A stretch of DNA of 64,000 bases. Origin: Escherichia coli. GTDB lineage: Bacteria; Pseudomonadota; Gammaproteobacteria; Enterobacterales; Enterobacteriaceae. The first letter of the stretch is position 1, and every line of letters begins with the position of its first letter. The stretch lies in NCBI RefSeq assembly GCF_003018255.1, contig NZ_CP027440.1; one strand, 5' to 3'. The translations under genes were made by a program, and so were the position numbers. The notes beneath the pieces are model-generated. The model searched no databases. It saw only the letters and a program-made list of their open reading frames with translations, and was not told the origin of the DNA. Positions 1-57,027 of the stretch are shown piece by piece.

Positions 1-159
1 AACGCTGCGTCGAGCAGCTGGCGAACTGGCATAAAGAGCTGGAGGAGTATAAGAACGCCTCCCGGATTGATATTAAACCGTCACGGGAATATGCCAGCAC
101 AATCATGAACGCTATCTGGACTGGCGAGCCGAGTGTGATTTACGGCAACGTCCGTAACG
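1..159 (+). pseudogene. melA: melA alpha-galactosidase (GH4), upstream part of reading frame, interrupted by prophage insertion at ~159/160
   Basis: Frame 3 reads ...NAIWTGEPSVIYGNVRN then V-stop inside prophage end; same frame resumes at 39000 as NDGLIDNLPQG...DWLPGWLHR*. Confidence 0.7.
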
Positions 160-176
160 TATAGCGCGGCGATTTT

Positions 177-242
177 TTTGATACCGATTTGCATTTCATT
201 TGATACCGCTGAAAAACGCCGATACGCAACTTATTTGATACT
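177..242. repeat. Right-end transposase-binding site cluster (three TTTGATAC(C) repeats)
   Basis: tttgataccg at 177-186, ttgataccg at 199-207, tttgatact at 234-242; reverse complements occur at the other prophage end. Confidence 0.6.
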
Positions 243-287
243 AAATCGGCGCTTTTCTTTTGAGTTTTAGAATGAGTTTTTAAGCGC

Positions 288-1025
288 TCATTCACTCTCT
301 TTCAAACCAGTTTTAACTGTTTGTGGTTTTGGGTAAGGCTGGACTTTGAATAGCTTTGTGTTGAGGCGTTTTCTGGCCCTCTTGTTCAGAAACCGGATGT
401 AACGAAACTGTCGGAACTTATGCACACTGGCTCTGTCGATATTAGCCCTCAGATGTTCACCTCGTTGTCCGCCTCGTTTAATGGCACTCCTGCAAATCTC
501 GTGATACCACTCGCCATCAAGTTCATAGAATGTTGATTCATGGCTGCCTACATAATCAAAATTGCTTGCCTGATACACGACACCAAGACAGCCACAACGC
601 TCATCTGCAAACGACTGAACCCACTGTACCTGCGGATAAAGCTGCCTGATTAGCTTGAGCGCGTAACTGATTGCCCTTGATTCGGAGTTTCTCGGCATAC
701 AGTCATGCATCCATAGCCGGTTAAGCTCCATATATTCTCGGTTCTGCGTACCCGTTACGACGCGTGCACCACTGTTTGGGTTAAGGGCGTAACCCCATTG
801 CATTACGCCAACAAGTTCCCGTTCTGAAAATATACCCAGATGAAGGTAGGAATTATTTACGAAACGGTGGCTGTAATGTTTATTGACGATAACCAGTCTG
901 GCCAGCCAGCAACTTATTGTCTCAACCCGCAACTCACGGGAGCCATAACCAACGATATTGTCGTTATAGCGAATAAGTTCAGGCGTGCTGATGATACGGG
1001 ATGTGACTTGCTTTCTGTTCCCCAC
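288..1025 (-). CDS. mom: Mom-like DNA modification protein
   Basis: 245-aa ORF at the Mu right-end position, overlapping the 3' end of com as in Mu; assigned by position and resemblance to Mu Mom from memory. Confidence 0.8.
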
Positions 1026-1179
1026 GACAGGATTTCCTTGTGTATGTGGGGTGCTCTGTGGCGCTCGGAGATGTGATTTGATTGAGGGTTTTACAGCGCG
1101 GACATTTTACTTCCAGATAACTGAAACTGGCCCGTGCCAGTAGCTTATTGCAGTGTCGGCACCGTATGTTTCGATACAT
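979..1179 (-). CDS. com: Com zinc-finger translational activator of mom
   Basis: [14 protein letters not shown]...CPRCK matches Mu Com C4 zinc finger; ATG at 1179 preceded by AGGAGG; track start at 1224 is a TTG extension. Confidence 0.8.
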
Positions 1180-1380
1180 GGCCGCATAACCTCCTGCTTT
1201 GTTGTTGATGCCTTTCTCATGCAATCGATCGACAAAAACGATCGATTCGATTTGTTTAATTGATACAACAAATAGATTTAAAAGTCATCAACAATGATTC
1301 AGGGCGGTGATTATTTACTTAAAGAAACGAAGAGTTAGGTGGTGAAAACGATCATAAAATGATCATTTTATTGACTTTTT
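1180..1380 (-). promoter_or_regulatory. com-mom upstream regulatory region with clustered Dam (GATC) sites
   Basis: GATC at 1227, 1240, 1350 and 1361; palindrome cGATCAtaaaaTGATCa at 1349-1365; Mu Pmom is known to be controlled by Dam methylation of upstream GATC sites. Confidence 0.5.
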
Positions 1381-2040: not shown

Positions 2041-2075
2041 GAATATTCTCCTTTCCTTTTCTGGTTCACAAAAAA

Positions 2076-2255
2076 TTAAATCTGACCGGAGTCTTTCGGC
2101 TGCGGCATTACAGCACCGCTTTTTATCTTTTCCTCGGCAGCTGCATCAATTTTATTTCGAAAATAATTGCGAATAATTTTATAACCACCGCTGACAAGCA
2201 ACAGACAACAAACCACCGTGCAGAAATACAGCAGGCAGACGTTTATATATGTCAT
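2076..2255 (-). CDS. Small membrane protein (59 aa), hypothetical
   Basis: Hand translation MTYINVCLLYFCTVVCCLLLVSGGYKIIRNYFRNK...; N-terminal hydrophobic helix, GAGG SD upstream; below the 60-aa cutoff of the ORF track. Confidence 0.45.
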   Translation of the reverse strand: MTYINVCLLYFCTVVCCLLLVSGGYKIIRNYFRNKIDAAAEEKIKSGAVMPQPKDSGQI

Positions 2256-2312
2256 ATAAGCCTCACTCTTATTAACTGATGTTACAGCCGGATAAATTCC
2301 CGGCCGTCACGA

Positions 2313-4361
2313 TTATGCCGCAGGGGTATTAACCTCAAGGACAACGCTCTCAAAAGACACGCCATAAGTTGCCCCTTTGGTGACATCTGTCAGTGTCAGC
2401 GTATCTTTGGCAGGGGAAAGTGCATCTTTCACCATCTGGAATGCCTGGCCCGGAGTGCCATCCAGCACAGGCGTTACCTGGGCACTTCCCGCCGTAAACT
2501 TCAGGACAAGTGTATGCCACTGGTTATTGTAGGCTCCAAATGATCCCAGTTTCGTATTCCCCCCTGTTTTATGGTGCATCAGATTTAACTGGCCGCCTGT
2601 TGTCTGGAGATAATACGCCATCAGGAACGGTGTGCCTGTACCACTCATGGTTACACCTTCCGGGACCGTATCGGTGTGGAGGTAAATACCCAGAGCAAAC
2701 TGGCCTTCTTTTACTTCACCTGACAGACGGAATTTACAGGTCAACTGACCACCATGCTTCAGAAGTTCACCGGCTGCATCAGTTCCATGGGTAAGCGTCC
2801 AGGTTTTTCCGCTTTGTTTGGATACGGTCAACGCTTTACCTTCGTCCGTCAGCTGGATTGTACCATCTGTAATTTTCCAGCCCTGAGCCGGGGCTTCTCC
2901 TGCTGATGCTTTAAGTGAAAGCAGCGTACGGAGTGACGGGGATGTCGGATGGGGGGACTCACTGCCTCCTGGCTGACTACCTGTCGGCGCTTCCGGTTTC
3001 CCACCCGGCGCGGGCTGAGGCAGGGCTTCACCATCAGGGGCCACACCGGCAATAAATGCAGAGGTCAGACCTGCATATTTAAGAATTGCTGATGCAAAAC
3101 GATCTGAGACCAGAAAACGGCGCGCCCAGGAGCTAAAATGGGTTGCCCTGGATGCTGTTGTCCAGTTGCCATCTCCCCGTGATTCCGCACCATAATACCC
3201 GGCAGAAGCGATATCCGGGTCGTGCTCCGGCAGGTTGGTCGCGGTTTTATTACCGAACTCATCGTGCATCAGTGGAACAAAGTGAATGTTCTCGGAAGCC
3301 CGGTTTTTATATCCGCTATAAATGGTTTCATATGCCGCCGGGTTCTTCTCTTTCCAGTCATAGGTTGTGTCACCACATAACCACGGCACACTGTCTGATG
3401 AACCACCAATACACTGACCGGAGAAAGCACCAAGATCCGCACGGAATTTTTTCACCATCGCAGTAAACTGGGCACCATGCTGGGCCGGGGTCGCTTTAAG
3501 GTCTCCTTCCCCCTGAATCCATACGACAGATAACAGCACATTCTTTGGATTCGCCTCAAGTGCCGCTTTAGTTCGACTGACAAGATCCTGATACAGTGGG
3601 GTATCCACTCCCCAGCGTAGTGACGCCTCGGCTGCACCACTTGCCGGATCGAATGAGCCAACTGCGCCGGTTGTAAAAGCAGAGCCGCCACGGGCACAGG
3701 GAACCAGTAAAATCCCGGCATCAGCAGGAATCACCGGTAATACTTTTTTCGCAATATGAAGTCCCTGCCCCACACAACCATACTGCCCTTTTTTCAGGTC
3801 TGCTTTTGGATGGTTCAGCAGACTCATATTCTGAACATCATGAAGGCAGTGATCTGCTGGAATGATTTCATTGTATTTGCAGGGAATACCTCCGGGGGTT
3901 TGTGTATTCCTGCGTGCCAGCTGCATAATACGTGGATCAGGACGATCATAAGAATCCGGAAGGGGCAACCCTTCACCATAAGATGAAGCATTGGACTGGC
4001 CGGCTATAACAATCACGTAATACCAGGAAGGGGAGCTGGAAGCAGTTTCATTTCCTGACGGACGGGTATGTGTTTCAGCATTATCCCAGTCTGACGGTTC
4101 AGCAGTACCGGCAACATCAGCACTTAACGGAATGACCGCACCAATACCCGCTCCGGTAATTTCCACACTCGGATCACCGGATACTGGCCTTACCCACAGG
4201 CAATCCCGTGTATTAAAACTGATGAGACAGTCAGCAAATGTCATTCCTCCTTTTGTTTCGGCCGGAGGAAAGGGAGCCTCAAGAAATGCCGCTGTACCAC
4301 CGGAAACTTTAACAGTAAAGTTTCCGGGCATTGATGATAGTTGAACCCATTTGGACGTCAT
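2313..4361 (-). CDS. SGNH/SASA-family esterase (sialate O-acetylesterase-like) with Pro-rich linker and C-terminal beta-sandwich lectin-like domain; NanS-p-like
   Basis: 682 aa; GQSN nucleophile motif (VIAGQSNASSYG), WIQGEGD block, PQPAPGGKPEAPTGSQPGG linker, Gly/Thr-rich C-terminal domain. Confidence 0.55.
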   Translation of the reverse strand: MTSKWVQLSSMPGNFTVKVSGGTAAFLEAPFPPAETKGGMTFADCLISFNTRDCLWVRPVSGDPSVEITGAGIGAVIPLSADVAGTAEPSDWDNAETHTRPSGNETASSSPSWYYVIVIAGQSNASSYGEGLPLPDSYDRPDPRIMQLARRNTQTPGGIPCKYNEIIPADHCLHDVQNMSLLNHPKADLKKGQYGCVGQGLHIAKKVLPVIPADAGILLVPCARGGSAFTTGAVGSFDPASGAAEASLRWGVDTPLYQDLVSRTKAALEANPKNVLLSVVWIQGEGDLKATPAQHGAQFTAMVKKFRADLGAFSGQCIGGSSDSVPWLCGDTTYDWKEKNPAAYETIYSGYKNRASENIHFVPLMHDEFGNKTATNLPEHDPDIASAGYYGAESRGDGNWTTASRATHFSSWARRFLVSDRFASAILKYAGLTSAFIAGVAPDGEALPQPAPGGKPEAPTGSQPGGSESPHPTSPSLRTLLSLKASAGEAPAQGWKITDGTIQLTDEGKALTVSKQSGKTWTLTHGTDAAGELLKHGGQLTCKFRLSGEVKEGQFALGIYLHTDTVPEGVTMSGTGTPFLMAYYLQTTGGQLNLMHHKTGGNTKLGSFGAYNNQWHTLVLKFTAGSAQVTPVLDGTPGQAFQMVKDALSPAKDTLTLTDVTKGATYGVSFESVVLEVNTPAA

Positions 4362-4460
4362 AATAATCAGCCTGTTCCTGAATAAACTGAATTATCATAT
4401 CCACAGACCGATAAACGCCATTTTGCGTTAATTCAGTAAAGGCCCAACAAAGAGAGCGTC

Positions 4461-5021
4461 TTATTTTTCCGAAACGCTCGCAGGATAATAACGATAAAGG
4501 GTTGAAAGACCGATATCAAAAATAAGTGCCACCTGTCTTCGACTGACACCCCCGGCCAGTAAACGCCCGACCTGCTCGTATTGTTCCTGCGTGAGACGGC
4601 GGGGTCTGCCGCCGGTTCGTCCCCTTTCACGGGCAGCTGCAAGACCAGCCCGTGTCCGTTCGACAATTAATTCACGCTCCATTTCTGCCAGCGCACCCAT
4701 TATGTGAAAAAAGAAACGCCCCATGGGGGTTGACGTATCAATGTTGTCAGTAAGACTACGAAAATTTATCCCCTGTTGCTGTAATTCATCTGTCAGCGCA
4801 ACAAGGTGGCGCATACTGCGCCCCAGCCTGTCCAGTTTCCAGACCATCAGTGTGTCACCGGGTTTTAGTTTCTTCAGTGCCCGCTTCAGTCCCGGCCGCT
4901 GTGTCGTTTTACCACTCATTTTGTCTTCAAAAATCTGCTCACATCCTGCACATTCCAGCGCATTTCTTTGTAAACCGGTGTTCTGGTCATTTGTTGATAC
5001 GCGTATATAGCCAATCAGCAT
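4461..5021 (-). CDS. gin: Gin/Hin/Pin-family serine DNA invertase
   Basis: MLIGYIRVSTNDQNTGLQRNAL...GRFFFHIMGALAEMEREL closely matches Mu Gin. Confidence 0.95.
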   Translation of the reverse strand: MLIGYIRVSTNDQNTGLQRNALECAGCEQIFEDKMSGKTTQRPGLKRALKKLKPGDTLMVWKLDRLGRSMRHLVALTDELQQQGINFRSLTDNIDTSTPMGRFFFHIMGALAEMERELIVERTRAGLAAARERGRTGGRPRRLTQEQYEQVGRLLAGGVSRRQVALIFDIGLSTLYRYYPASVSEK

Positions 5022-5075
5022 GTATTTACCTTCCTTAAAAAGAGGTGAAAATGCCTTTTAAAACAGATATACGGT

Positions 5076-5101
5076 ATCCCTGAAAACCTCGGTTTACGGG
5101 A
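5076..5101. other. gix-like recombination site (gin-proximal)
   Basis: tccctgaaaacc-tc-ggtttacgggaa resembles Mu gix (TTATCCAAAACCTCGGTTTACAGGAA); 28-bp perfect inverted match with 6437-6464. Confidence 0.7.
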
Positions 5102-5471
5102 AACGGTAAATAAGGCTGCTGATGCCCTGCCATCGGGTGGAACCGCCGTGGCAGCAAACAGACTCGCCACCCCAAGAAATATTAATGGCGTTCCTTTTGA
5201 CGGAACGCAGGATATCAACATCACGTCAGGAATGACGCAGTCAACCGCAGATGGCCGGTATGTACAGAATGTTCAGCTTGGAGCACAGAGCTATCATTCA
5301 CCCGGAGGCAATGAAATATCATGGAATTACAGCGCACCTTCCGGTTGTATGCTTTCCGGTATTAACGTGCAGGAAACCGGCTCCCGGTCTGCGGACAATA
5401 TCGGTGGGGTCTATTATCGCCCGGTTCAGATTTATATTAATAATGCCTGGAGAACGGTAAGTTCAGTGTAA
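5091..5471 (+). CDS. Alternative tail-fibre C-terminal segment (Sv'), promoterless, expressed only after inversion
   Basis: Plus-strand frame GLRETVNKAADALPSGGTAVAANRLATPRNINGVPFDGTQDINITSGMTQS... parallels the C-terminus of the tail fibre on the minus strand. Confidence 0.65.
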   Translation, partial: GLRETVNKAADALPSGGTAVAANRLATPRNINGVPFDGTQDINITSGMTQSTADGRYVQNVQLGAQSYHSPGGNEISWNYSAPSGCMLSGINVQETGSRSADNIGGVYYRPVQIYINNAWRTVSSV

Positions 5472-5505
5472 ACCACAGAAAAGGGTGCTGAATGCACCCT
5501 CTGAA

Positions 5506-6138
5506 TTATTCCGGTTTTTCCGGCCAGGGAATCGCCTGGTAATGCCCCTCACTGGCAATATCATTAAAGTGCATTTCTTTAAGCTGTCGGATATACGCCA
5601 TCCAGCGCGTCAGCTGTAATTTATTTTCATCGCTAATCATGTCCAGTTTTAATTCTGTTTTCCAGTCATCCACGGTTTCGTTGGCTTCCTGGAGCAGCGA
5701 TGAGCGACGCTTTTCAGCAACCGTCTTCCAGTTTACCGGCACCTTTGATATCAGGCCATCAGAAAACTGCCAGTTACCGTCAATATTCACACCTTCCGGC
5801 AGTTCGTCCACTTCAACAACAGTAAAACCTGCCGGATATAAAGCAGAGACATCTTCAGCAACAGAGCAGATAATACCCGTTACAGGCGAAATACAGAGTT
5901 TGTATTTCTTTGTGAAAAGCGGGATAGATTCATAAAAATCCCTTCCGTCCTCACTCTGGAAATACTGAACATCCTCACCATAGGGTTTGTGTTCCGGGTA
6001 ATATCGTTTTACGTTAATAAGCTCCATTATTTCACCTTGTTTTTGTTGAAAAGACAAAATCATCATATATTTATTCAGATAATCTGTTTTTTGAACTACT
6101 GCACTTTTATGCGCTGGAAGCTGTTTTCCACGAACCAT
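5506..6138 (-). CDS. Tail fibre assembly chaperone (U/Tfa-like)
   Basis: 210-aa ORF immediately downstream of the tail-fibre variable part, inside the invertible segment. Confidence 0.7.
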   Translation of the reverse strand: MVRGKQLPAHKSAVVQKTDYLNKYMMILSFQQKQGEIMELINVKRYYPEHKPYGEDVQYFQSEDGRDFYESIPLFTKKYKLCISPVTGIICSVAEDVSALYPAGFTVVEVDELPEGVNIDGNWQFSDGLISKVPVNWKTVAEKRRSSLLQEANETVDDWKTELKLDMISDENKLQLTRWMAYIRQLKEMHFNDIASEGHYQAIPWPEKPE

Positions 6139-6994
6139 CTATCAGAAACTGAACAGGTCGATAATATGCGGTTACCGTTGCATTACCATCACCAGCGACA
6201 TCAAGCCCTGTAAGTACGCATCCGTCAGGAACTTCAAAAATATTATATTGCATTCCAATCGTTGACCTTGAACCTCTTCGAATGCTTTGAACATAACGTG
6301 AGTCAGCCACAGACTGCGTCATCCCCGATGTAATATTTATATCCTGCGTTCCGTCAAATGGGACACCATTAATATTTCTTGGAGTGGCGAGTTTATTCGC
6401 TGCAACAGCCGTTCCGTTCGATGGCAGGGCATTCGCCGCCTTATTTACCGTTTCCCGTAAACCGACGTTATCGATAAAAGCGCCTTTATCCGGAATGTCT
6501 GCGCCGTTCTGCTCCCTGCGCAGGTAACGGTTATCACCTTCGCTTTTGCTGTAAACATCCAGATTATTACGGGCGGTTCCCGCATTCTCCAGGTCGGCAA
6601 GGTTCTGATCCTTCGCCAGAGCATTAACGTCACCGGGACCAAGACTGTTTTTTGTGGCAAGCGCCCCAAGACCAAGATAACCACGGGCAAGACGCTGGGC
6701 TTCCGCACCGGCATCAGCAATTTCTTTCAGGTTGTTTTTCCGGGAAAAGGCATTCGCAGCGATAATGGCTTTAATGGACAGCGTAAGCTGGTTTAACTGC
6801 GCCTTATCCGGCTGAATACTGGCTTCAGCCAGAATATTCAGCAGTTCGGCCTGGAGAATATTCAGCCAGTCCTGACCAATCCAGCTGATACCTTTTTGTC
6901 CGTCACCTTCGGTAAACCAGGTGGTGGTATTACTCTGCGCCGGTGCCAGCGCAGGCATATTCGCCACGCCGGAATTATTATCAACATGAAACAT
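6107..6994 (-). CDS. Tail fibre protein S (constant N-terminal part plus invertible C-terminal part)
   Basis: 295 aa; C-terminal ~115 aa lie within the invertible segment; crossover falls at IDNVGLRETVNK. Confidence 0.75.
   Translation of the reverse strand: MFHVDNNSGVANMPALAPAQSNTTTWFTEGDGQKGISWIGQDWLNILQAELLNILAEASIQPDKAQLNQLTLSIKAIIAANAFSRKNNLKEIADAGAEAQRLARGYLGLGALATKNSLGPGDVNALAKDQNLADLENAGTARNNLDVYSKSEGDNRYLRREQNGADIPDKGAFIDNVGLRETVNKAANALPSNGTAVAANKLATPRNINGVPFDGTQDINITSGMTQSVADSRYVQSIRRGSRSTIGMQYNIFEVPDGCVLTGLDVAGDGNATVTAYYRPVQFLIDGSWKTASSA
6451..6475. other. gix-like recombination site (inside tail fibre gene)
   Basis: ttcccgtaaacc-ga-cgttatcgata; inverted partner of 5076-5101. Confidence 0.7.
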
Positions 6995-7554
6995 TAAATA
7001 GTCTCCTCTTCATGGCTGTTTGCATACACGTAAATAAACGTCTGCCATGCAGGCTTATAACGGTTCAGAATACATTCCAGCGCACCGCCTTCATAAATAC
7101 GCAGCGGCGTGAGAATATCATCCAGCACATTCATATTCCGGTAGCCGGTTTCACTGTTAATCGTGACAATACTGACCCACTGTGAATCCGGTGATGGCTG
7201 AATATCTATTTCATAACCAAACTCTGCCGCAAACCGGATATAAAATTCACGGTTAAGAGAGGGTTTCATCCGGTATTTATTCCCGGCATAACGCTGACGC
7301 TCCTGAATGGTTGCGCCGGTCATATCACATTCCGGTAACCCCAGATAACGCTCCCAGTCTTCCAGCAGCAGACGGGATGAATCAGGAAAACGTTCTGCCA
7401 GCATCTGGTTACCGGTCCAGGAAACACGCTCCGTGGAATGACTGAGGCCCAGGCACAAAGCCGCAAGAACGGATGACGGCCGCTTATCCCATGCCAGCCC
7501 GTCAGGCAGCAACTGCAACAGGGCACGCTGATGCGGGGTCAGGGTTACAGCCAT
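6994..7554 (-). CDS. Tail/baseplate protein (Mu gp48-like)
   Basis: Position between baseplate J-like gene and tail fibre. Confidence 0.6.
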   Translation of the reverse strand: MAVTLTPHQRALLQLLPDGLAWDKRPSSVLAALCLGLSHSTERVSWTGNQMLAERFPDSSRLLLEDWERYLGLPECDMTGATIQERQRYAGNKYRMKPSLNREFYIRFAAEFGYEIDIQPSPDSQWVSIVTINSETGYRNMNVLDDILTPLRIYEGGALECILNRYKPAWQTFIYVYANSHEEETI

Positions 7555-8630
7555 GTGATTTCCCCCACGGTCAGCAACTCTGTATCTCCGGCCATCACGG
7601 ACTTCAGCGGGCTGCGAACTTCAAAATCCTCCAGTCCTTTCACCCCTGCAACAGCCCGCCAGAATGATGAAGGCAATACAAGTCCACCCGGCCGCGATTC
7701 GTTATAAAGCAGGTCCGTTAATGCCTGTTTTACGGCAGCCTGATTTTCCGGCGTTTTGGGTACAATCCTGATCTCAAACGCCACCGGCTTATTGGTCAGC
7801 TTAAACACGCTGATTGTCGGCCCAAGTGGCTGACCAACGGGCTGGCCCGTCGCCGGATCATCATGACTGCGGATATAATCCGCCACCCGCTTCACATCAC
7901 CTTCTCCGGGGAAAATGTCAGGGTTATTATCCTGAACAAAAGTCACACCAACACTACCCGCCTCAGGCCATTCAGGCTTACACCATGCCCGCGTCACGCC
8001 CGGTACTTCCCGTGCCCAGCGTTCAAAATCATACTGTGTTCCCCCTGATGGCGGGTTCTGTACCCGGAATACCAGCCTGGACAGCAACTCCGGCACCGTT
8101 TCCACATCCGCACCACCGGTGAGTCCCGTGCCGGTGACCGTGGCTGTCTGGTTGATGCCCGCCTGTGGCGTGATAAAGGACAGGCGGGTTCCGGTCGGGG
8201 TATTTCCAGCGCGCCCCGCACTTTCCGCCTCCACATTAACATTCAGTGTTCCGGCTTTTCCGGTCGCAGAGCCGGTGATGCGGTACACAACACCATCGCT
8301 TCGCTGAAGGAGTACGCCTTCCGTGATCCCTGCATCCGTGGTCAGCATCAGTTGTACCGGTCCGTCAGCGCGGGAAGCCGGTTTACGGATGACACCCCAG
8401 AATGCGCAGTGTTTCAGGAGTTCGGCTTCATCAGCTTCTGTCGGAATTATCTGCCGGGAGATCCAGGCCAGATGTTCATGCTCCTGTGCTGACAGACCCG
8501 CCAGTGCATACGCAATGGCATTCAGGGTGGTTTCATTCACGCCCGGCTGCGAACCGGGCAGGCGCTGGCTGATATCCTGTTGTGTCTGTGTGATCAGTTG
8601 CGCCAGTGGTAAGGGCTGATAAGGCATCAT
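7545..8630 (-). CDS. Baseplate J-like protein (Mu gp47-like)
   Basis: 361 aa, position and size. Confidence 0.7.
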   Translation of the reverse strand: MMPYQPLPLAQLITQTQQDISQRLPGSQPGVNETTLNAIAYALAGLSAQEHEHLAWISRQIIPTEADEAELLKHCAFWGVIRKPASRADGPVQLMLTTDAGITEGVLLQRSDGVVYRITGSATGKAGTLNVNVEAESAGRAGNTPTGTRLSFITPQAGINQTATVTGTGLTGGADVETVPELLSRLVFRVQNPPSGGTQYDFERWAREVPGVTRAWCKPEWPEAGSVGVTFVQDNNPDIFPGEGDVKRVADYIRSHDDPATGQPVGQPLGPTISVFKLTNKPVAFEIRIVPKTPENQAAVKQALTDLLYNESRPGGLVLPSSFWRAVAGVKGLEDFEVRSPLKSVMAGDTELLTVGEITWL

Positions 8631-9064
8631 TCCCCCTTCATATCAGCATAAAAAATCATCGGATGTCTGCTTCCGTCCGGCAGGGTGATTTTCACGGAAA
8701 GCGAAAGGCGAGCATGCCCCACACGCATGGCATGGCATACCACGGATGTGGCAGCACCGCTTTTATGCAGCCACGCCAGCGCTTCATCAGCATAGGCCTG
8801 TGCACGGCTGACCACGGAGGACAGCGTCTTTTCACGGCTTAACAGCCAGAGACGGGAGCCAACGGGGCGCTCCCGGAAACTGTCTCCCCACCATCCCCGA
8901 CGGTCACGGGTGCCGTCAGGGATTTCATCGGAATCCAGCGCCCGCCTGTCCGTAAACAGTGAAATAATGACCGCAGTCAGCAGGCTGTTATCCGTCAGAA
9001 GATCTGCGCCGTTCAGTTGCAGGGAACCGCAACCCTGATCCCAGACGACAGCAATATCAGCCAT
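8627..9064 (-). CDS. Baseplate protein (Mu gp46-like)
   Basis: Likely start MADIAVVWDQ at 9064 (track ORF 8627-9277 is an upstream extension overlapping the previous gene). Confidence 0.6.
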   Translation of the reverse strand: MADIAVVWDQGCGSLQLNGADLLTDNSLLTAVIISLFTDRRALDSDEIPDGTRDRRGWWGDSFRERPVGSRLWLLSREKTLSSVVSRAQAYADEALAWLHKSGAATSVVCHAMRVGHARLSLSVKITLPDGSRHPMIFYADMKGE

Positions 9065-34268: not shown

Positions 34269-34496
34269 TTAGCTGACTTGTTTCGCACCAACAGAACGGC
34301 ATATTCCGCTGTAAACGTCTGTCGCACCTTCGCGATCAAGTCCGGCAGATATCACCATTCGTGTGCGGTCATTAAATTCAAAAAGAAAATCGCCACATTC
34401 TTTATTTTCGGCCAGTGAAATCACCTTCACGTTATCGAAATTAACCAGGTAAAAGCGTCCGTAAATATCAGGAATATTAAATACCGCCATAATCAC
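34269..34496 (-). CDS. Hypothetical early protein at kil position (directly after B)
   Basis: 75-aa ORF; position only. Confidence 0.4.
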   Translation of the reverse strand: MIMAVFNIPDIYGRFYLVNFDNVKVISLAENKECGDFLFEFNDRTRMVISAGLDREGATDVYSGICRSVGAKQVS

Positions 34497-35425
34497 ACCT
34501 GTGAGAGTAATTCAGGGTTGGTATAAACCTCTTTAAAGGCCGCATTAATATGTTTTTCTGTCAGCGCCGCGCCTTCACCGCTGGCGGTGAGCCACGCCTG
34601 GTTAAGCGTATGTGTCAGAACGCGTAACGCTCCCGGCTTTTCAGCGATAGCCTGCATGACGGCCAGCTCGGCCTCACCACTGATCCCCCACGCCCTGGCA
34701 ATGGCCAGCACATCCGCCTTTTTGGCCTTGCGAAGTTGTTTTGTACGGGCAAGACGGCTGAACAGGCGCGATAAATCATCAAAGGCGCGGCGTCCACCTT
34801 TAAACAATCCGCGCGGGTTACCAATAAGCACCATCCCGATCCCCGTGGCGTCCTGAATTGCCCGGAGTTGCTCCAGACCGTCAATACCAAGATGATCCGC
34901 CTCATCCACAATCACCAGTCCACGCGTTCCCATCAGGCGACGGCGGATGGCGCGGGATAATGCCCCTTTGTTCGCGCGGGTGTAATCAATCCCCAGCGCA
35001 TCGGCCAGCTCCAGCAGACACTCCGTGACGCTGGAGTGCGCGGGTGACAGGGTGATCATCCAGGTGTTTGGTTGCTCCTGGCAGTAATTACGGGCAGTGG
35101 CCGTTTTACCCACACCCGGTACGCCCACAATAACGTTAATACAGCCCATCAGACGAACCGCCTGAAACAGTGCGCGCAGCTCCTGGACTGTCTGCGTTTC
35201 CACAAACTGCGGCGGTTCCGGCAGTGCGCTTTGTTTATTCCAGTTCTCATACCAGGAACGCAGGGAAGCAGCCACAGCAGCGTTATCGCCTTTATATTTT
35301 CCCTTACGGAAAGCCGATAATGTGCCGTCGGAAATTCCCGCCTCTCTGGCGATGGCATACTGCGTCAGTACGCCGCCATCAATAAGTTCATCAATGGTCT
35401 TGATTACATCGTTAATATCAGTCAT
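34493..35425 (-). CDS. Transposition ATPase B (MuB-like, AAA+)
   Basis: Walker A GVPGVGKT, N-terminal HTH-like region; directly downstream of transposase. Confidence 0.9.
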   Translation of the reverse strand: MTDINDVIKTIDELIDGGVLTQYAIAREAGISDGTLSAFRKGKYKGDNAAVAASLRSWYENWNKQSALPEPPQFVETQTVQELRALFQAVRLMGCINVIVGVPGVGKTATARNYCQEQPNTWMITLSPAHSSVTECLLELADALGIDYTRANKGALSRAIRRRLMGTRGLVIVDEADHLGIDGLEQLRAIQDATGIGMVLIGNPRGLFKGGRRAFDDLSRLFSRLARTKQLRKAKKADVLAIARAWGISGEAELAVMQAIAEKPGALRVLTHTLNQAWLTASGEGAALTEKHINAAFKEVYTNPELLSQV

Positions 35426-35496: not shown

Positions 35497-37587
35497 TCAG
35501 GCCAGCGGGTCATTTTCTTTTAATTTCGCTTCCAGCAACTGCAATCCCCGCTGGAAATTACGCTCGTATTCTTCATCAGGTTCATCGTCAGCGACCGGTT
35601 GCTGAACGGTCACCGTATTACCCACAGGGCGGTATATGTTTTCCAGCCAGGGCTCCTGCGGCTTGTGCTCCAGCACGTTGACAACCTCATCCTCGGCATC
35701 ACGGATTTTTTCCTCTGCGCGTTTACGCATGCCTTTAAGGCGTTGCTGCTGTTTGTAGTATTCCGCGCTAACCGGGAAGGCTTCGCGTTTATTACCGTCC
35801 CATACCGCCTCGCAAATCACGCTGCCATCCAGGCGACGTACGGTAATTCGTTCGGCATCATGAATGTCATAGCTGATAAGCACCTTACGACCATGCTCGT
35901 CACGCAGCTCGGGCGCGTAGTAAATATTATTCAGCCAGCGTATTTCACAGCGTCTTACAGGGCGTTCCACCATCGGCCGGAACATATCCCGCAGCTCAAC
36001 ATCGGACAGCCATTCAATTTCCGTGTCCTCTTCCGCCAGGCGTTTTTTTCTGAACTCCGCCGGGCTGTAATGCTTGCCGTTCGGCTTCACCGGTAATTCA
36101 TCGTGCGGCCGGTTGTTGTACCACTCAACACCGTCACGAATGGCATCAATCAGTTCAGACCAGGACGGTAAATCACGCATCGCTGACTGCTGCCGGGCGT
36201 TCAGCCGTTTGCCCTGTTGCAGGGCAGTAAATGCCGAGCGTAAATCGCGGTTGGTTTTGCGTAACGTCTCGCGATCTGCACCTTTCCCGAAATAGGTGCG
36301 GTATTTACGGGCTATGCGCATCGGTAATGTGCGGTTAAGCCGTTCGATAATGCCTCGTCCCTGCGGATTACCGGCAATCCCGGTCGGGTGATTAATCCCC
36401 AGTCGCGGCAGTATCCCCACAACCTCCTTATCCAGGATGTCGGCGGTTTCCCCGGAGCCGTTATCCGAGTAATACAGAAACGGTTTGCCGTGATGGCGAA
36501 TGCCGTGCTGTATGGCACCGGCTACGGCGAAAACATTTTCAGCCAGGTCAAGGCTCCAGCCCACCACAAAGCGCGTGCCACCGTCGATAACAAAGGTCAC
36601 TTCCGGTGCAAATGGCCGACCGTGAACCGGGTGTGCGCATTTCAGCTTCATGCCGTGACCGTCACCAATCCAGACATAATTCACCGGCATTCTGGACCAG
36701 TCGCGGCGCGTGAATCCCTCAAGCTGGCGGTATTCACTGCCGGTCACCCGGCCTTTTTGTTTCACCACTTCCGGCAGTTTCTTCATTGCGCGGCGAATGG
36801 TGTCATAAGACGGCATGATATCGAGCATATAAGGCTCATCAGCGTGCCGGTGCTGCCATTCAGCGACAAAATCCTCGTAAGCCTCGGTCATTGGTCGGCC
36901 GTTTGACTGGCGATACTGCGCCAGAAATTCGGGCAGCCAGTTAATATCTTCAGCTTTTATTTCCTGGCGCTTACCCGGTGCCAGTAAAAGCAGGCGTTCA
37001 GCGGCGTTCTGCGCCTTGTTAAAGGCCGCAATCCAGCGTTTCAGCGTTATTTCACTCAACGCACGGCTGTTTCCCTTTTTGGCGTTCGCCGTCTCAACCA
37101 TTGCCACAATGCGCTCGTCCAGTTGCGAACGTGCCAGGTTGTCAACGATAAACCGGATAGCTTTCGCACAGCTGAAACCGGGTTGTTGCGCGACTTTCAT
37201 CACTTCGCTGACGATCGCAATTCGTGCATCAGCCACCTGGCGCTGGTTTTCAGTCAGGGCATTAAGGCGTTCAACCATCAGTTGTGGTGATCCGCGATAT
37301 GCCTCCACCGCATCAACCACGGCAGGCGAGCGTCTGGCCTTTGTCACCACCGGAGCCGGTGATTCATCAGCTTTTTGCGTCATCAGTTGAAGGGCATAAC
37401 GTTCACGCAATACTTGTTGCGCGCCAGAAGGCAAACAATCGATATTAAATTCGATTGCTTTTGTCCCCTTACGTTTGCGTAACATGGCTGCATTTCCCGC
37501 AGCTGCTTTTGTGAGTCGATGGCGAATGTTATGTTCCATCATTGGTAAATCAGGAAGACCAACACATTCTTTTGCTGTTACCCACAT
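35497..37587 (-). CDS. DDE transposase A (MuA-like)
   Basis: 696 aa, N-terminal MWVTAKECVGLPDLP resembles MuA. Confidence 0.9.
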   Translation of the reverse strand: MWVTAKECVGLPDLPMMEHNIRHRLTKAAAGNAAMLRKRKGTKAIEFNIDCLPSGAQQVLRERYALQLMTQKADESPAPVVTKARRSPAVVDAVEAYRGSPQLMVERLNALTENQRQVADARIAIVSEVMKVAQQPGFSCAKAIRFIVDNLARSQLDERIVAMVETANAKKGNSRALSEITLKRWIAAFNKAQNAAERLLLLAPGKRQEIKAEDINWLPEFLAQYRQSNGRPMTEAYEDFVAEWQHRHADEPYMLDIMPSYDTIRRAMKKLPEVVKQKGRVTGSEYRQLEGFTRRDWSRMPVNYVWIGDGHGMKLKCAHPVHGRPFAPEVTFVIDGGTRFVVGWSLDLAENVFAVAGAIQHGIRHHGKPFLYYSDNGSGETADILDKEVVGILPRLGINHPTGIAGNPQGRGIIERLNRTLPMRIARKYRTYFGKGADRETLRKTNRDLRSAFTALQQGKRLNARQQSAMRDLPSWSELIDAIRDGVEWYNNRPHDELPVKPNGKHYSPAEFRKKRLAEEDTEIEWLSDVELRDMFRPMVERPVRRCEIRWLNNIYYAPELRDEHGRKVLISYDIHDAERITVRRLDGSVICEAVWDGNKREAFPVSAEYYKQQQRLKGMRKRAEEKIRDAEDEVVNVLEHKPQEPWLENIYRPVGNTVTVQQPVADDEPDEEYERNFQRGLQLLEAKLKENDPLA

Positions 37588-37597
37588 ACATCCCCCA

Positions 37598-37864
37598 TCA
37601 AGCCACTTCTCTGGCGTCCACCTGGTATCTGCTGGGCCAGATTACAGCAGGTTCAACCCCTATTTTTTCGGCGATGGCGGCTTCGTATTTACGGCACTGG
37701 CGGTAAAACACATTGCGCATTGATCCGCTTTTTAATCCTAACTCCCTTTCCAGTTCAGGGAGGTCTGTGCCTTTGTTTTCAAGGGCTGCATATACCGCTT
37801 TAGCAGACCAGTCACACCCCTCTCGAACAAACAAATTATTCGATGCTTGTCTGGATACCCTCAT
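37598..37864 (-). CDS. ner: Ner-like DNA-binding regulator
   Basis: C-terminal EPAVIWPSRYQ matches Mu Ner. Confidence 0.8.
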   Translation of the reverse strand: MRVSRQASNNLFVREGCDWSAKAVYAALENKGTDLPELERELGLKSGSMRNVFYRQCRKYEAAIAEKIGVEPAVIWPSRYQVDAREVA

Positions 37865-38020
37865 TGTGTGATCCTCTCATGTTTACCTGAACCGATAATC
37901 AAAACCGGTTATCGATTTAGGTAAATCATAATCGCAAAATAATTCGATATCAACGGTTTTTTGCGAGCATATCGAAATTAAATGCGATGTCGATAATTTC
38001 TTTGTTTTATAGGGGGTTAT
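37865..38020. promoter_or_regulatory. Divergent early/repressor promoter-operator region
   Basis: 156-bp gap between divergent ner and repressor genes with repeated TCGATA/TTATCG motifs. Confidence 0.55.
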
Positions 38021-38632
38021 ATGGATAAGGCAGAAAAAACCGTATCCAGTGCGGAACGGTTTATTGATATGGAAGGAATAAACCGATTTTCAGAACGCTT
38101 AGCTATGGCTATGGGAAACATGACAAACGTCGAACTGGCGACCCTTTGTGGACTATCTGAAGCCACAGTAAGAAATTACAGGAAGGGGAAAAACTTCCCT
38201 CCTTTGGATAAACTGGCCTTAATAGCTAAAGCCTGTAATTGTTCACTCGAATGGTTGGCCACAGGCAAGAACGAAGATGAATGCGGAAAAATCGAAAACA
38301 ATTGCGATTCAGGTTCGGGTATTGATCAGGCGCTTAGCTCTCTAAGCCCCCAAGAGAAGCAATTAATCCTTACATTCATCAGGCGAGAAGGTACTAATAA
38401 CCTTGTCAGGCTGGCAGCAATGAATACATCTACAATCAGCCAGGATGCGGTAGAAAGCATCATTGATGCCTTGCCATTACGTCCCGTACTAAAAAATGCA
38501 ATAAAGATAGGAATGGCGGGAAGTGAAGAAACAGACAAAGAGATTTTGCGCGTTATTGAGAAGTACAACTCGAGCAATAACGCCACCCAGGAATCAGGGG
38601 CAGTGACAGTAAAGAAAAATGTTGTTGGTTAA
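38021..38632 (+). CDS. Prophage repressor (c-like, HTH)
   Basis: 203 aa with HTH (VELATLCGLSEATVRNYRKGK), divergent from ner/A/B. Confidence 0.75.
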   Translation: MDKAEKTVSSAERFIDMEGINRFSERLAMAMGNMTNVELATLCGLSEATVRNYRKGKNFPPLDKLALIAKACNCSLEWLATGKNEDECGKIENNCDSGSGIDQALSSLSPQEKQLILTFIRREGTNNLVRLAAMNTSTISQDAVESIIDALPLRPVLKNAIKIGMAGSEETDKEILRVIEKYNSSNNATQESGAVTVKKNVVG

Positions 38633-38778
38633 GCGCCATCGCTATCATGAGGTGGTGCTGTAAATACATATAGAGATCATATGACTCATCCCAAGATAAT
38701 CACGCTATTGAATAGTAATTCATGATGATTATCATACTGATTATAGTTAGATCGATTATGTGAGCATTTTGGCAGTTT

Positions 38779-38812
38779 GAAGATGTTTTGAAGATGTTTT
38801 GAAGAAGATTTT
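38779..38812. repeat. Tandem repeat (gaagatgtttt x2 plus partial third) near left end
   Basis: Direct sequence repetition at 38779-38812. Confidence 0.6.
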
Positions 38813-38828
38813 AAGGGTAAATTAGCAG

Positions 38829-38983
38829 TATCAAATGTGTCGCCGTTTTTTGATCTTTTGACTATTTGTTGAGCAGTCGGTATCAAAAAGAGTTTTCCGT
38901 CCGAAGTATACATCACCTGTTTTATTTCAGCATCTTACAGGTGATTTCACCTCCTTTCACTAAAACCCTTGTCGGTATCAAAT
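38829..38983. repeat. Left-end transposase-binding site cluster (three GTATCAAA repeats)
   Basis: gtatcaaa at 38829, ggtatcaaaaa at 38879, ggtatcaaa at 38974; inverted copies of the right-end sites. Confidence 0.6.
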
Positions 38984-38999
38984 GATTCACCTGGTTACA

Positions 39000-39311
39000 A
39001 ACGATGGATTGATTGATAACCTGCCACAAGGATGTTGCGTGGAAGTAGCCTGTCTGGTTGATGCTAATGGCATTCAGCCGACCAAAGTCGGTACGTTACC
39101 TTCGCATCTGGCCGCCCTGATGCAAACCAACATCAACGTACAGACGCTGCTGACCGAAGCCATTCTTACGGAAAATCGCGACCGTGTTTACCACGCTGCG
39201 ATGATGGACCCGCATACTGCCGCCGTGCTGGGCATTGATGAAATATATGCTCTTGTTGACGACCTGATTGCCGCCCACGGCGACTGGCTGCCAGGCTGGT
39301 TGCACCGTTAA
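39000..39311 (+). pseudogene. melA: melA alpha-galactosidase, 3' fragment downstream of prophage
   Basis: NDGLIDNLPQGCCVEV...DWLPGWLHR* continues the frame broken at 159. Confidence 0.7.
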
Positions 39312-39958
39312 GGGGTAATCGCTTCCGGCGCTCTGGTGATTAAGCCAAAGCGCCGTAGCTGGCGGCAATGAAAGCGAGCGAGGAATATCACCGTCGTTAA
39401 TGCGCCAAGCAGCGCGCAGAACATATCGGATTGCGTGTCCCACTGGTCGCCCTGGGTGCCGAGAAAATCATCCGCTCCCTGACCCATTGCCAGCGCCGCC
39501 CACCACTCGATTAATTCATACATCGCGCTTATCGCCAGCGCCACGCAGCAGACCAGAAACGCCACCATCTTATGTCCGTGAACGTACATCCCGCGCACAA
39601 GGATCTCTCGTGCCACCAGTGCAGGCACCAGCCCCTGGAAAAAATGTCCCAGTTTGTCATACGGATTACGGCTCAACCCCAGCCATTCCTGCACCTCAAA
39701 ACCAACGGGGACTTTCGCGTAGGTGTATTGTCCGCCGACCATCAGGATGATGGCGTGAAAGAAAATGAGCGTATAGAGCAGCGGCGTTAACGGATAACGT
39801 TTAGCGGTGGCAAGCAGTAGCGGCACGACAATAATCACCGGTGTCACTTCCATCAGCCAGGTGAGTTTGTCATTGGCCGAAATGCCGGTATAAATCAGGA
39901 TTAACGTTAGCGCCAGTGCGCCGGTGTTAAGAATTAACGGCTTGAGTGTGCGGGTCAT
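39308..39958 (-). CDS. yjdF: Inner membrane protein YjdF
   Basis: Multi-TM 216-aa ORF at the expected position upstream of fumB. Confidence 0.75.
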   Translation of the reverse strand: MTRTLKPLILNTGALALTLILIYTGISANDKLTWLMEVTPVIIVVPLLLATAKRYPLTPLLYTLIFFHAIILMVGGQYTYAKVPVGFEVQEWLGLSRNPYDKLGHFFQGLVPALVAREILVRGMYVHGHKMVAFLVCCVALAISAMYELIEWWAALAMGQGADDFLGTQGDQWDTQSDMFCALLGALTTVIFLARFHCRQLRRFGLITRAPEAITP

Positions 39959-40080
39959 GGTGAGTTCGCAAGTCAGGGAAAATACTGACTATTGACCAGT
40001 AAGCGTGAAATTACAATCGCAAAAGAGGTGGCCCAGGGGGATCACCTGGCAGCATGCTGCCAGGCGCTGGGCCGAAGAGG

Positions 40081-41727
40081 TTACTTAGTGCAGTTCGCGC
40101 ACTGTTTGTTGACGATTTGCTGGAAGAAGTCGTTACCTTTGTCATCGACCAGGATAAACGCCGGGAAATCTTCTACTTCGATTTTCCAGATAGCTTCCAT
40201 ACCCAGCTCCGGATAAGCGACGCATTCCAGATGCTTGATGCTCTGCTGCGCCAGTACCGCCGCCGGACCGCCGATACTACCGAGGTAGAAGCCGCCATGT
40301 TTATGACACGCGTCGGTAACCTGCTGACTGCGGTTACCTTTCGCCAGCATGATCATGCTGCCGCCGTGGGATTGCAGCAGATCCACGTAGGAGTCCATAC
40401 GACCTGCGGTGGTTGGGCCAAGTGAACCTGATGGATAACCGGCAGGGGTTTTCGCCGGACCCGCGTAGTAGATCGGGTGATCTTTGATGTACTGCGGCAG
40501 TTCTTTACCGGCGTCAATCAGCTCTTTCAGCTTGGCGTGTGCAATATCTCGGCCCACGATAATGGTGCCGGTGAGCGACAAACGAGTGGAAACCGGATAT
40601 TGCGAAAGCTGGGCGAGGATCTCTTTCATCGGGCGGTTAAGGTCGACCTTCACCGCTTCGCCTTCACCGGCCTGGCGCAGTTCTTGTGGAATGTACTGGC
40701 CTGGATTGCGTTCCAGCTTTTCGATCCAGATACCTTCGCGGTTGATTTTCGCTTTAATGTTACGGTCAGCGGAGCAGGAGACGCCCATGCCTACCGGGCA
40801 GGATGCACCGTGACGCGGCAGACGGATAACGCGAATATCGTGCGCGAAGTATTTACCACCAAACTGCGCGCCAAGACCGAGTTTCTGGGCCTCTTCCAGC
40901 AGTTCCTGTTCCAGCTGGACATCGCGGAACGCCTGACCATGTTCGTTCCCTTCCGTCGGCAGTTCATCGTAATAGTGGGCGCTTGCTAACTTGACGGTTT
41001 TCAGGTTGGTTTCCGCAGACGTACCGCCAATCACAAACGCGATATGGTACGGCGGGCAAGCTGCCGTACCGAGGGTACGCATTTTCTCGACGAGGAAGTT
41101 TTTCAGTTTGCCGGGCGTCAGCAGGGCTTTGGTTTCCTGGTAGAGATACGTTTTGTTGGCAGAGCCGCCGCCTTTCGCAACGCAAAGGAATTTGTACTCA
41201 TCGCCATCTACCGCGTACAGGTCGATTTGCGCAGGCAGGTTCGTGCCGGTGTTGACCTCTTTATACATGTCCAGCGGCGCGTTCTGTGAATAGCGCAGGT
41301 TATCTTCGATATAGGTGTTATAGACACCTTTCGACAGTGCTTCTTCATCACCGCCACCGGTCCACACGCGCTGGCCTTTTTTACCGACGATGATCGCGGT
41401 GCCGGTATCCTGGCAGGTCGGCAGCACGCCTTTGGCGGCGATTTCGGAGTTTCTTAAGAATTGCAGCGCCACGTACTTGTCGTTTTCGCTGGCTTCTGGA
41501 TCGTGAAGAATAGCCGCAACCTGTTTCTGGTGTGCTGGGCGGAGCATGAAAGAAGCGTCGTGAAAGGCTTGCTGCGCCAGCAGGGTCAGGGCTTCTGGTT
41601 CCACTTTCAGGATGGTTTCGCCGTCGAAGTCGGCAACGCTAACGTAATCGGAAGTGAGTAGATAGTATTCGGTATTGTCTTTCCCCATCGGGAAAGGTGC
41701 CTGGTAGATAAAGGGTTTGTTTGACAT
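40081..41727 (-). CDS. fumB: Fumarate hydratase class I, anaerobic
   Basis: 548 aa, [24 protein letters not shown]... Confidence 0.9.
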
Positions 41728-41804
41728 AGCTTCCAGCCTGTAACTCTGTATTTGTTATTCGAAAATGGCGTGCCGCGTAGTCACGGGCGGCACGCAAAGT
41801 GCAT

Positions 41805-43145
41805 TTATAAGAACCCGTACATCGCGGCGAAGATCCAGCCGAAGACGCACGATACGCTCACACCAATCAACCCCGGCAGAATAAAGCTGTGGTTGATGAC
41901 GAAGCGACCGATGTGGGTGGTGCCGGAACGGTCAAACTGAATCGCTGCCAGATCGCTCGGATAAGTCGGCAGGATGTAATAACCGTAGCAAGCCGGTGCT
42001 GAAGCCACGATGTATGCCGGATCAACGCCGATCGCCAGCGCGACCGGAACAATCGCCGCCAGCGCCGCAGCCTGAGAGTTTACAAACTTGGAAACCAGCA
42101 GCAGAACAATGGCATAGGCCCACGGATACTCTTTCACCATTTCGCCCAGTACGCCCTGAATTTCAGACATATGCGCACCGAACATGGTTTCAGCCATCCA
42201 TGCGATACCGTACACCGCCACGATGGCGATCATACCGGAACGGAAGACTTCGTTTTTTGAGATAGACGCGGGATTGGTTTTGGTCAGGATAATAATCAGC
42301 GCCCCGGTCAGCAGCATAAACATCTGAATAACCAGTACCATCGACAGCGGTTTGCCACCGAAGGATGGACGCAGGTCCGAATCAGCACCAAGAAGTGCGA
42401 CTACAGCGATTGCCCCGAGGAAGATCCACATTGCAAGCCAGTTGCTTTTCGGCAGTTTTTTATCGAGCAGCGTCGCGGTATCACCGTAAACATACTCACG
42501 GTTTTCCGGTATGGAGATGAATTTCTGGAACTCTTCGTCTTTATCCAGATCTTTACCGCGGAACCAGCTGAAGATACCGATCGCCAGGATACCGATTAAC
42601 GTCGATGGAATGGTGATTGCCAGCAGGTCGAGGAACTCAAGATGGCGACCATCAAAGGTGACATTACCCAGCATCGCAACCAGAGACACGACTGCAACCG
42701 ACACCGGACTGGCGATAATCCCCATCTGTGCACCGATAGAACTTGCCGCCATCGGGCGTTCCGGACGGATGTTGTTCTTAATGGCGACGTCGTAGATGAT
42801 CGGCAGAATGGTGTAAACCACATGACCCGTACCGCAAAGAATGGTCAGCGTACAGGTCACAAACGGCGCGACAATTGAGACATATTTCGGGTTGCGGCGC
42901 AGCAGCTTCTCGGCAATTTGCAGCATGACATCAAGACCGCCCGAAGCTTGCAAGGTCGCCGATGCTGCCACCACCGCAATGATAACCAGCATGACATCAA
43001 CCGGTGGTTTACCTGGCTGAAGGTGGAAGACGAAGACCAGAATGACCAGACCGATACCGCCTAATAAACCCAGCGCGATACCACCCTTTCTGGCACCATA
43101 AAACAGACATATCAGTATTATGATAAGTTGGATAGTAAATAACAT
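41805..43145 (-). CDS. dcuB: Anaerobic C4-dicarboxylate transporter DcuB
   Basis: 446-aa polytopic membrane protein, paralogue of DcuA in this window. Confidence 0.9.
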
Positions 43146-43715
43146 GTGTGAACCCTCGCGATAATCCTATTTAAATTTTTGCTGAATAGATCACAGTCAC
43201 GTTCTGTTTTGTATGAACTGTTTTCAGAGCCTGACTAAATATCCGTTTGGTCGTTACCGGCTTGAGCAAATACCTCACAGTGAATATTGGCTGATTAAAG
43301 CAGCGGCAAATTTATGCACTGTGATAAGCGGCTTTTTCAGAGAGAAAAACTCTCTGGCGATGGGTTTATAGTTTGTACTGCGCAGATGTTAATGTTTTGT
43401 TTGCTGTTATCTTATTGATATTTATCGGTCTATTTTTTGTTCTCAGGGCAGATATCATTAGGTTTATAGATTAATCTGATCTACCCATTTGTGGGTAAAA
43501 ATACACATAATACGGGTGACATAATAGTTAATTAACTTTTGTTAGCGTTTTGAAATTAAAAACACCGTTCACCTGAAGAGATATTAATTTTTAGCGATGA
43601 TGGAGGGATAATTATATTTGATCTGGCACAAGTTTTACTGATGAAGGATGTAACTTGTGCCAGGGGTATTTTGCATTACAGTAATAATTATTACTTACAG
43701 ATAACCAGCGATCCG

Positions 43716-56951: not shown

Positions 56952-57027
56952 TGGTGCCCGGACTCGGAATCGAACCAAGGACACGGGGATTTTCAATCCC
57001 CTGCTCTACCGACTGAGCTATCCGGGC
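56952..57027 (-). tRNA. pheU: tRNA-Phe (GAA)
   Basis: Reverse complement is GCCCGGATAGCTCAGTCGGTAGAGCAGGGGATTGAAAATCCCCGTGTCCTTGGTTCGATTCCGAGTCCGGGCACCA. Confidence 0.97.

Follow-up and report, generated by a model that had tools for sequence, protein, structure and literature searches.

How an Escherichia coli melibiose locus came to hold a melA gene cut in two by a prophage and, directly beyond it, no melB at all, and whether both lesions bear on melibiose use, are the questions raised by the 64,000-nucleotide stretch of DNA analysed here (hereafter, the window). We consider it very probable that two unrelated events of greatly differing age meet at this place, an old deletion of melB and a recent insertion of a prophage into melA, and that the source strain is melibiose-negative (Mel-) by the melA lesion alone. 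A transposable prophage of a known kind has inserted, as a strain-specific event, into the melA gene of a melB-less background that is common and has been described before, and the locus is, as such, ordinary.

Interruption of melA and its predicted effect

The mel region of K-12 MG1655, annotated in the order adiA-melR-melA-melB-yjdF-fumB-dcuB, was used as a BLASTN query against the window and aligned in three collinear blocks, two of which belong to melA. K-12 positions 2801-2959 correspond to window positions 1-159 (98.7% identity, E 2e-77) and K-12 positions 2956-3267 to window positions 39000-39311 (98.4% identity, E 2e-157). These two blocks are contiguous in K-12 and share four of its bases, AACG (2956-2959), which align in the window both at 156-159 and at 39000-39003, the two copies of a target-site duplication. 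At the protein level, TBLASTN places MelA residues 298-349 at positions 3-158 and residues 347-451 at positions 38994-39308. As observed directly at both junctions, melA is broken after codon 349 of 451 by 38,840 bp, and the window holds no uninterrupted 451-codon gene.

The 5' fragment (1-159, plus strand) comprises codons 297-349 and the first base of codon 350; these 159 bp are the part of the melA 5' portion visible within the window, the melA start and melR lying outside. Its reading frame runs into the phage, where the native ending ...GNVRN is followed by a valine and a stop codon (GTA TAG, 159-164). The 3' fragment (39000-39311, plus strand) opens with the duplicated codon 349 and continues with codons 350-451 and the stop codon. 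The right boundary between prophage and melA, at 38999/39000, falls within the interval 38990-39320 delimited by the first-pass annotation, which had proposed from the letters alone that the melA frame resumes exactly at the prophage end and that the gene is insertionally inactivated. The first proposal is correct and the second is supported. A 109-aa ORF (38982-39311) starts at an in-frame ATG within the phage end and extends into the melA 3' fragment. The prophage repressor gene is read in the same direction as this ORF, and it is pure speculation that read-through could express a C-terminal MelA peptide and also give transcription antisense to yjdF.

Uninterrupted MelA is an alpha-galactosidase of family GH4 with Glyco_hydro_4 and Glyco_hydro_4C domains, the latter spanning residues 198-421 according to Pfam, and the break at residue 349 falls within it. 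The insertion would cut the protein to 349 native residues and one valine; since roughly one third of this domain would be lost together with the tail, MelA should be dead. The mutation should also be stable, because precise excision of Mu-type insertions does not reach a useful frequency. Since the pathway has no alpha-galactosidase other than MelA, the source strain is predicted to be alpha-galactosidase-negative and Mel- through the melA insertion alone, unless another such enzyme is encoded elsewhere.

This proviso has a concrete form. The strain might be melibiose-positive despite its split melA if it owned another alpha-galactosidase, for example RafA from a plasmid-borne raf operon, and raf plasmids do occur in animal-associated E. 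coli. However, the 64-kb window contains no second alpha-galactosidase, TBLASTN with MelA finding the two melA pieces only, and we regard such a rescue as unlikely. The expected loss of MelA activity offers a clean prediction from genotype to phenotype (alpha-galactosidase-negative, Mel-) and possibly a strain marker, which matters little beyond the description of the strain.

The melB-less junction and its age

In K-12, melB occupies positions 3370-4791 of the mel region, between melA and yjdF, as the first-pass annotation had stated. The third BLASTN block links K-12 positions 4933-9001 to window positions 39332-43401 (98.2% identity) and leaves out K-12 positions 3268-4932. These 1,665 bp, which comprise the melA-melB spacer, melB, a REP-containing spacer and the yjdF stop codon, are missing from the window, and 20 bp (39312-39331) identical to those of strain E04 and of the type strain ATCC 11775 stand in their place. 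No MelB-like translation is found in the 64-kb window (best E = 0.23, TBLASTN with MelB), and the K-12-type melAB operon, in which melB lies just 3' of melA and before the convergent yjdF, is absent from it. The suspicion that melB is missing between the two genes was therefore well founded.

The replacement of 1,665 bp by 20 bp accounts for both an altered YjdF ending and an overlap of yjdF with melA. The window encodes a 216-aa YjdF variant (39308-39958, minus strand; NCBIfam PRK09867, E 1e-139, residues 1-208) that ends in ...GLITRAPEAITP, whereas the 209-aa protein of K-12 ends in ...GLITG. The melA stop codon TAA lies at 39309-39311 and the yjdF stop at 39308-39310 on the minus strand; the convergent ORFs, stops included, overlap by 4 nt (39308-39311), precisely where a stop overlap had been noted at first pass. 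A scan for promoters and terminators near the melA-yjdF junction gave background level only. In the melB-less haplotype, the overlapping stops of melA and yjdF leave neither a spacer nor a clear terminator between the two genes (39308-39331), and this convergence should therefore entail transcription of each gene into the other in the ∼23% of E. coli genomes that share it. Further downstream, fumB (40081-41727, minus strand) and dcuB (41805-43145, minus strand) are the normal K-12 neighbours, and the flank from 39000 to 63900 (yjdF-fumB-dcuB-dcuRS ... cadCBA, dsbD and a tRNA-Phe gene at 56952-57027) shows synteny with that of other E. coli.

This arrangement is widespread. A 241-nt junction probe matched over its full length in 1,264 of 5,426 complete E. 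coli genomes (∼23%), with 96.7-100% identity among the carriers and a prophage at that place in none of them; in the remaining matching genomes, the match to the probe is broken precisely at the melA stop codon. A search with K-12 melB detects the gene in 4,136 of the same 5,426 genomes, in 4,127 of them with an identity of 99% or more. The two counts sum to 5,400, one fewer than the 5,401 genomes with any match to the locus, so that, judged from this sum rather than genome by genome, the two sets are essentially disjoint and junction carriers essentially never have melB elsewhere. Among the carriers are LF82, NRG 857C, porcine ETEC, O139:H1 strains and the type strain ATCC 11775 / DSM 30083T. 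Over 56 nt, the junction is identical in the window, E04 and ATCC 11775, and with the 216-aa YjdF it gives the window a B2-type locus.

The absence of melB is also on record, since, according to Touchon et al. 2009 (PMC2617782), no phylogroup B2 strain has the gene, and B2 is negatively associated with melibiose degradation genes (Touchon et al. 2020, PMC7314097). The Clermont markers lie outside the window, and its flank does not point to B2 in particular, with 97.9% identity to the type strain of that phylogroup and 98.2% to K-12. Among complete genomes, JNE23-011 and JNE112863 come nearest to the flank (99.6%); none in RefSeq is identical to it, which places the source strain outside that collection. 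The adjacency of melA and yjdF, which the first-pass annotation had named as evidence that would speak against its reading if seen in K-12-like genomes, does occur in about 23% of complete genomes, but not in K-12-like ones. Given a junction present in 1,264 prophage-free genomes and a published absence from B2, the melB loss is an old lineage trait that had already been described, and not a second hit in the source strain as had been supposed.

We treat the melB event as a deletion and not as a gain, because melAB is also the arrangement of Salmonella and because 4,127 genomes carry melB with an identity of 99% or more. On the opposite reading, melA-yjdF would be ancestral and K-12-type strains would have acquired melB by insertion. 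Homology breaks off exactly at the melA stop and the yjdF stop, which is tidy for a deletion, and the junction is old, as its identity of 96.7-100% among carriers indicates. The melAB arrangement is nevertheless found in other enterobacteria as well. In Salmonella it comes with a functional MelB, as the literature on MelB_St attests, and the uniformity of melB within E. coli is what vertical inheritance would be expected to give. The 20-bp filler moreover shares the 9-mer TTCCGGCGC with a hairpin of the K-12 melA-melB spacer, a weak point as roughly 0.1 such matches are expected by chance, and the exact junction 27-mer had no match in a scan of species-representative genomes, a result that is uninformative on sharing by other Escherichia species. 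An acquisition of melB by K-12-type strains is accordingly very unlikely in our opinion. Within the filler, the end-points of the deletion are ambiguous by global alignment, and we claim no microhomology mechanism beyond the shared 9-mer.

If the event was a deletion, some 1.6 kb carrying melB and the yjdF stop would have been removed in the ancestor of a large E. coli lineage, leaving an intact, orphan melA that converged on a slightly lengthened yjdF. It could still be argued that the melibiose pathway of the source strain was struck twice independently, perhaps by linked events or under selection against melibiose use, as the melA and melB lesions lie within 320 bp of each other. But 1,264 complete genomes share the identical melB-less junction with their melA intact and free of a prophage, the sequence of melA between the deletion end-points (39311/39332) and the phage end (38999) is undisturbed, Mu-type transposition with its own 4-bp duplication fully explains the insertion, and the type strain, which has the same junction, is Mel+. 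These facts make a double strain-level hit barely credible. We likewise considered whether the prophage and the melB deletion might be causally connected and reject this, in view of the junction in prophage-free genomes and the intact melA sequence between the lesions: the melB loss is unrelated to the prophage 310 bp away.

What the lack of melB means for melibiose use is best judged from the type strain. In API 20E tests, M9 minimal medium and phenotype arrays alike, ATCC 11775 / DSM 30083T is reported to be melibiose-positive (PMC4334874), and because its junction is identical to that of the window, the absence of melB does not predict a Mel- phenotype. The source strain had been predicted melibiose-negative on two counts; only the melA lesion is an effective one. 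LacY carries melibiose, as is established from K-12 genetics. Melibiose uptake in melB-less strains would thus most simply proceed via LacY, by extension from K-12, and such strains may still use the sugar, with LacY importing it and MelA cleaving it. In line with this role, the standard host for MelB assays, DW2, must be both melB- and lacY- (PMC10374971). ATCC 11775 also uses lactose (PMC4334874). Among gut isolates, 59 of 63 use melibiose (PMC8232093), a figure uninformative here since few of them belong to B2. For annotation, the practical lesson is one of caution: a melA without melB beside it is a normal haplotype of ∼23% of genomes and does not, on its own, signify the loss of melibiose use.

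The inserted prophage and its mode of transposition

The insert is a Mu-like transposable prophage of the Sp18 type (160-38999, 38,840 bp, minus strand), with its early end (repressor and transposase) on the right and its mom end on the left. Its identity follows directly from comparison. It is collinear with an annotated Mu-like prophage of the O26 strain RM10386, at ∼98% identity over 36.0 of 38.8 kb, and its ends are 97% identical to those of the "inserted Bacteriophage Mu-like phage" in the Stx-phage record LC727881. On the right, a MuA-type transposase of 696 aa (35497-37587, minus strand; phrog_310, E 1e-209) adjoins a MuB-type DNA transposition ATPase (34493-35425, minus strand; phrog_296, E 8e-110), and the RefSeq homologue of the former is named "Mu transposase C-terminal domain-containing protein". 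A prophage repressor (38021-38632, plus strand; phrog_3037, E 3e-59) and a ner-like gene are also present. Toward the left lie a Gin-type serine invertase (4461-5021, minus strand), which adjoins an invertible tail-fibre segment, a com-like zinc-finger ORF (979-1224, minus strand), so called from the RefSeq names of its homologues, and a mom-like DNA modification gene (288-1025, minus strand; phrog_1384, E 1e-83). NCBIfam named neither the transposase, for which it returned only weak IS-transposase matches below the cut-offs, nor Mom; PHROGs named both. The tail-fibre segment at 5091-6465 is inverted relative to the otherwise collinear RM10386 prophage, which fits an active inversion switch of the G-segment type.

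Two parts of the prophage depart from RM10386. At the nucleotide level, neither the immunity region (37421-38910) nor positions 2054-3433, within a large DUF6645-type gene, can be matched to the prophage of that strain; the immunity region is also unlike that of LC727881. As read from the sequence, both differences would represent modular exchange within the Sp18-type phage family. The repressor of the immunity region has 203 aa in the window prophage versus 176 aa for the protein of its relatives.

Both phage ends carry repeated motifs. The mom-side end (160-260, plus strand) starts with TATAGCGCGG and has TTTGATACCG repeats at 177 and 199, and the repressor-side end (38826-38999, minus strand) reads TGTAACCAGG... 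on the minus strand, with repeats of the same type at 38826, 38878 and 38973. In total, TTTGATACCG matches 13 times in the window versus 4.0 expected, a number reached in none of 100 shuffles. The repeats are inverted between the two ends (177 and 199 on the plus strand, 38826, 38878 and 38973 on the minus strand) and are putative motifs of the transposase-binding type.

In other genomes, the Sp18-type phage end adjoins many unrelated host genes, among them psiE, dprA, bcsA and ypdA, and an insertion at melA is seen in none of the 5,426 complete RefSeq E. coli genomes. Prophages of this kind are known as Sp18-like and variable in location (PMC10132054), and Sp18 itself interrupts a gene of the sorbose operon (PMC7430833), so the inactivation of melA, a sugar gene, adds a new site to a kind of event already known for this phage family. 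We compared both junctions of eight independent insertions (the window, LC727881, RM10386, 2013C_3653, SJ7, O157 2-6-2, STEC2018-607 and 7_26_9A). The phage starts with TATAGCGC and ends with TGGTTACA in all eight, and the flanking direct repeat measures 4 bp in seven, the length also annotated by the depositors of LC727881; the 5 bp of the remaining one are about as expected if a 4-bp repeat is now and then extended by chance. These prophages consequently combine many unrelated sites with a short direct target duplication. The window insertion would have arisen by a recent transposition of such a phage between codons 349 and 350 of melA, either in the source strain or in a near ancestor, duplicating 4 bp. 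A mis-joining of the prophage into melA during assembly, for which nothing specific speaks, can be practically discounted, as both junctions are base-precise and show the 4-bp direct duplication together with the exact termini of seven other independent insertions.

Phage Mu makes a 5-bp target duplication and has TG...CA ends. Neither the 5-bp duplication nor these termini are those of the window prophage, whose ends, in the orientation of the window, are 5'-TA...CA-3' (TATAGCG...GGTTACA, with the junctions at 156-163 and 38996-39003). The Sp18-type family thus seems to differ from Mu in both duplication length and termini. The window prophage is Mu-like in mechanism without being identical to Mu in these two respects.

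Relation to known systems

Taken further, and only tentatively, our observations would fit a picture in which Sp18-type phages seem to transpose with a 4-bp stagger and a mom-side end in ...TA-3', and in which an orphan melA seems to be kept intact in about a quarter of E. coli since LacY replaces MelB, the source strain being a natural melA-null in this background. If the substitution by LacY is true, it would be an extension of textbook K-12 genetics and not a new system.

The closest relatives of the insert are Sp18 of E. coli O157:H7 Sakai and the Mu-like prophages of STEC (CC119, O26, O157), with which it has ∼98% nucleotide identity over most of the genome as well as gene order, end sequences, variable sites and the inactivation of host genes in common. 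It differs from them by its new site in melA, by its immunity region (37421-38910) and by part of the DUF6645 gene, and from RM10386 also by the opposite orientation of the invertible segment. With phage Mu itself, it shares MuA/MuB-type transposition genes, a repressor and ner-like genes in the early region, gin-type inversion and com/mom, along with many insertion sites, a short target duplication and repeated motifs at both ends that resemble transposase sites. Unlike Mu, for which textbook values are used, it duplicates 4 bp and not 5 bp, and its mom-side end is ...TA-3' and not ...CA-3'.

As for the host locus, the B2-type mel locus of ATCC 11775, LF82 and NRG 857C (melR-melA-yjdF, no melB) has the same 56-nt junction, 216-aa YjdF and 4-nt overlap as the window, and the flanking fumB-dcuB-dcuRS genes are common to both. 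The window melA is additionally interrupted by a prophage, an insertion found in 0 of the 1,264 junction carriers. Finally, the mel operon deletion of STEC/EPEC O80:H2 ("70mel") is another natural, lineage-wide lesion of the melibiose locus. In those strains, which are Mel-, a 70-bp fragment stands in for the entire operon of melR, melA and melB, whereas in the window 20 bp take the place of melB only, a lesion that still allows a Mel+ phenotype where melA is intact.
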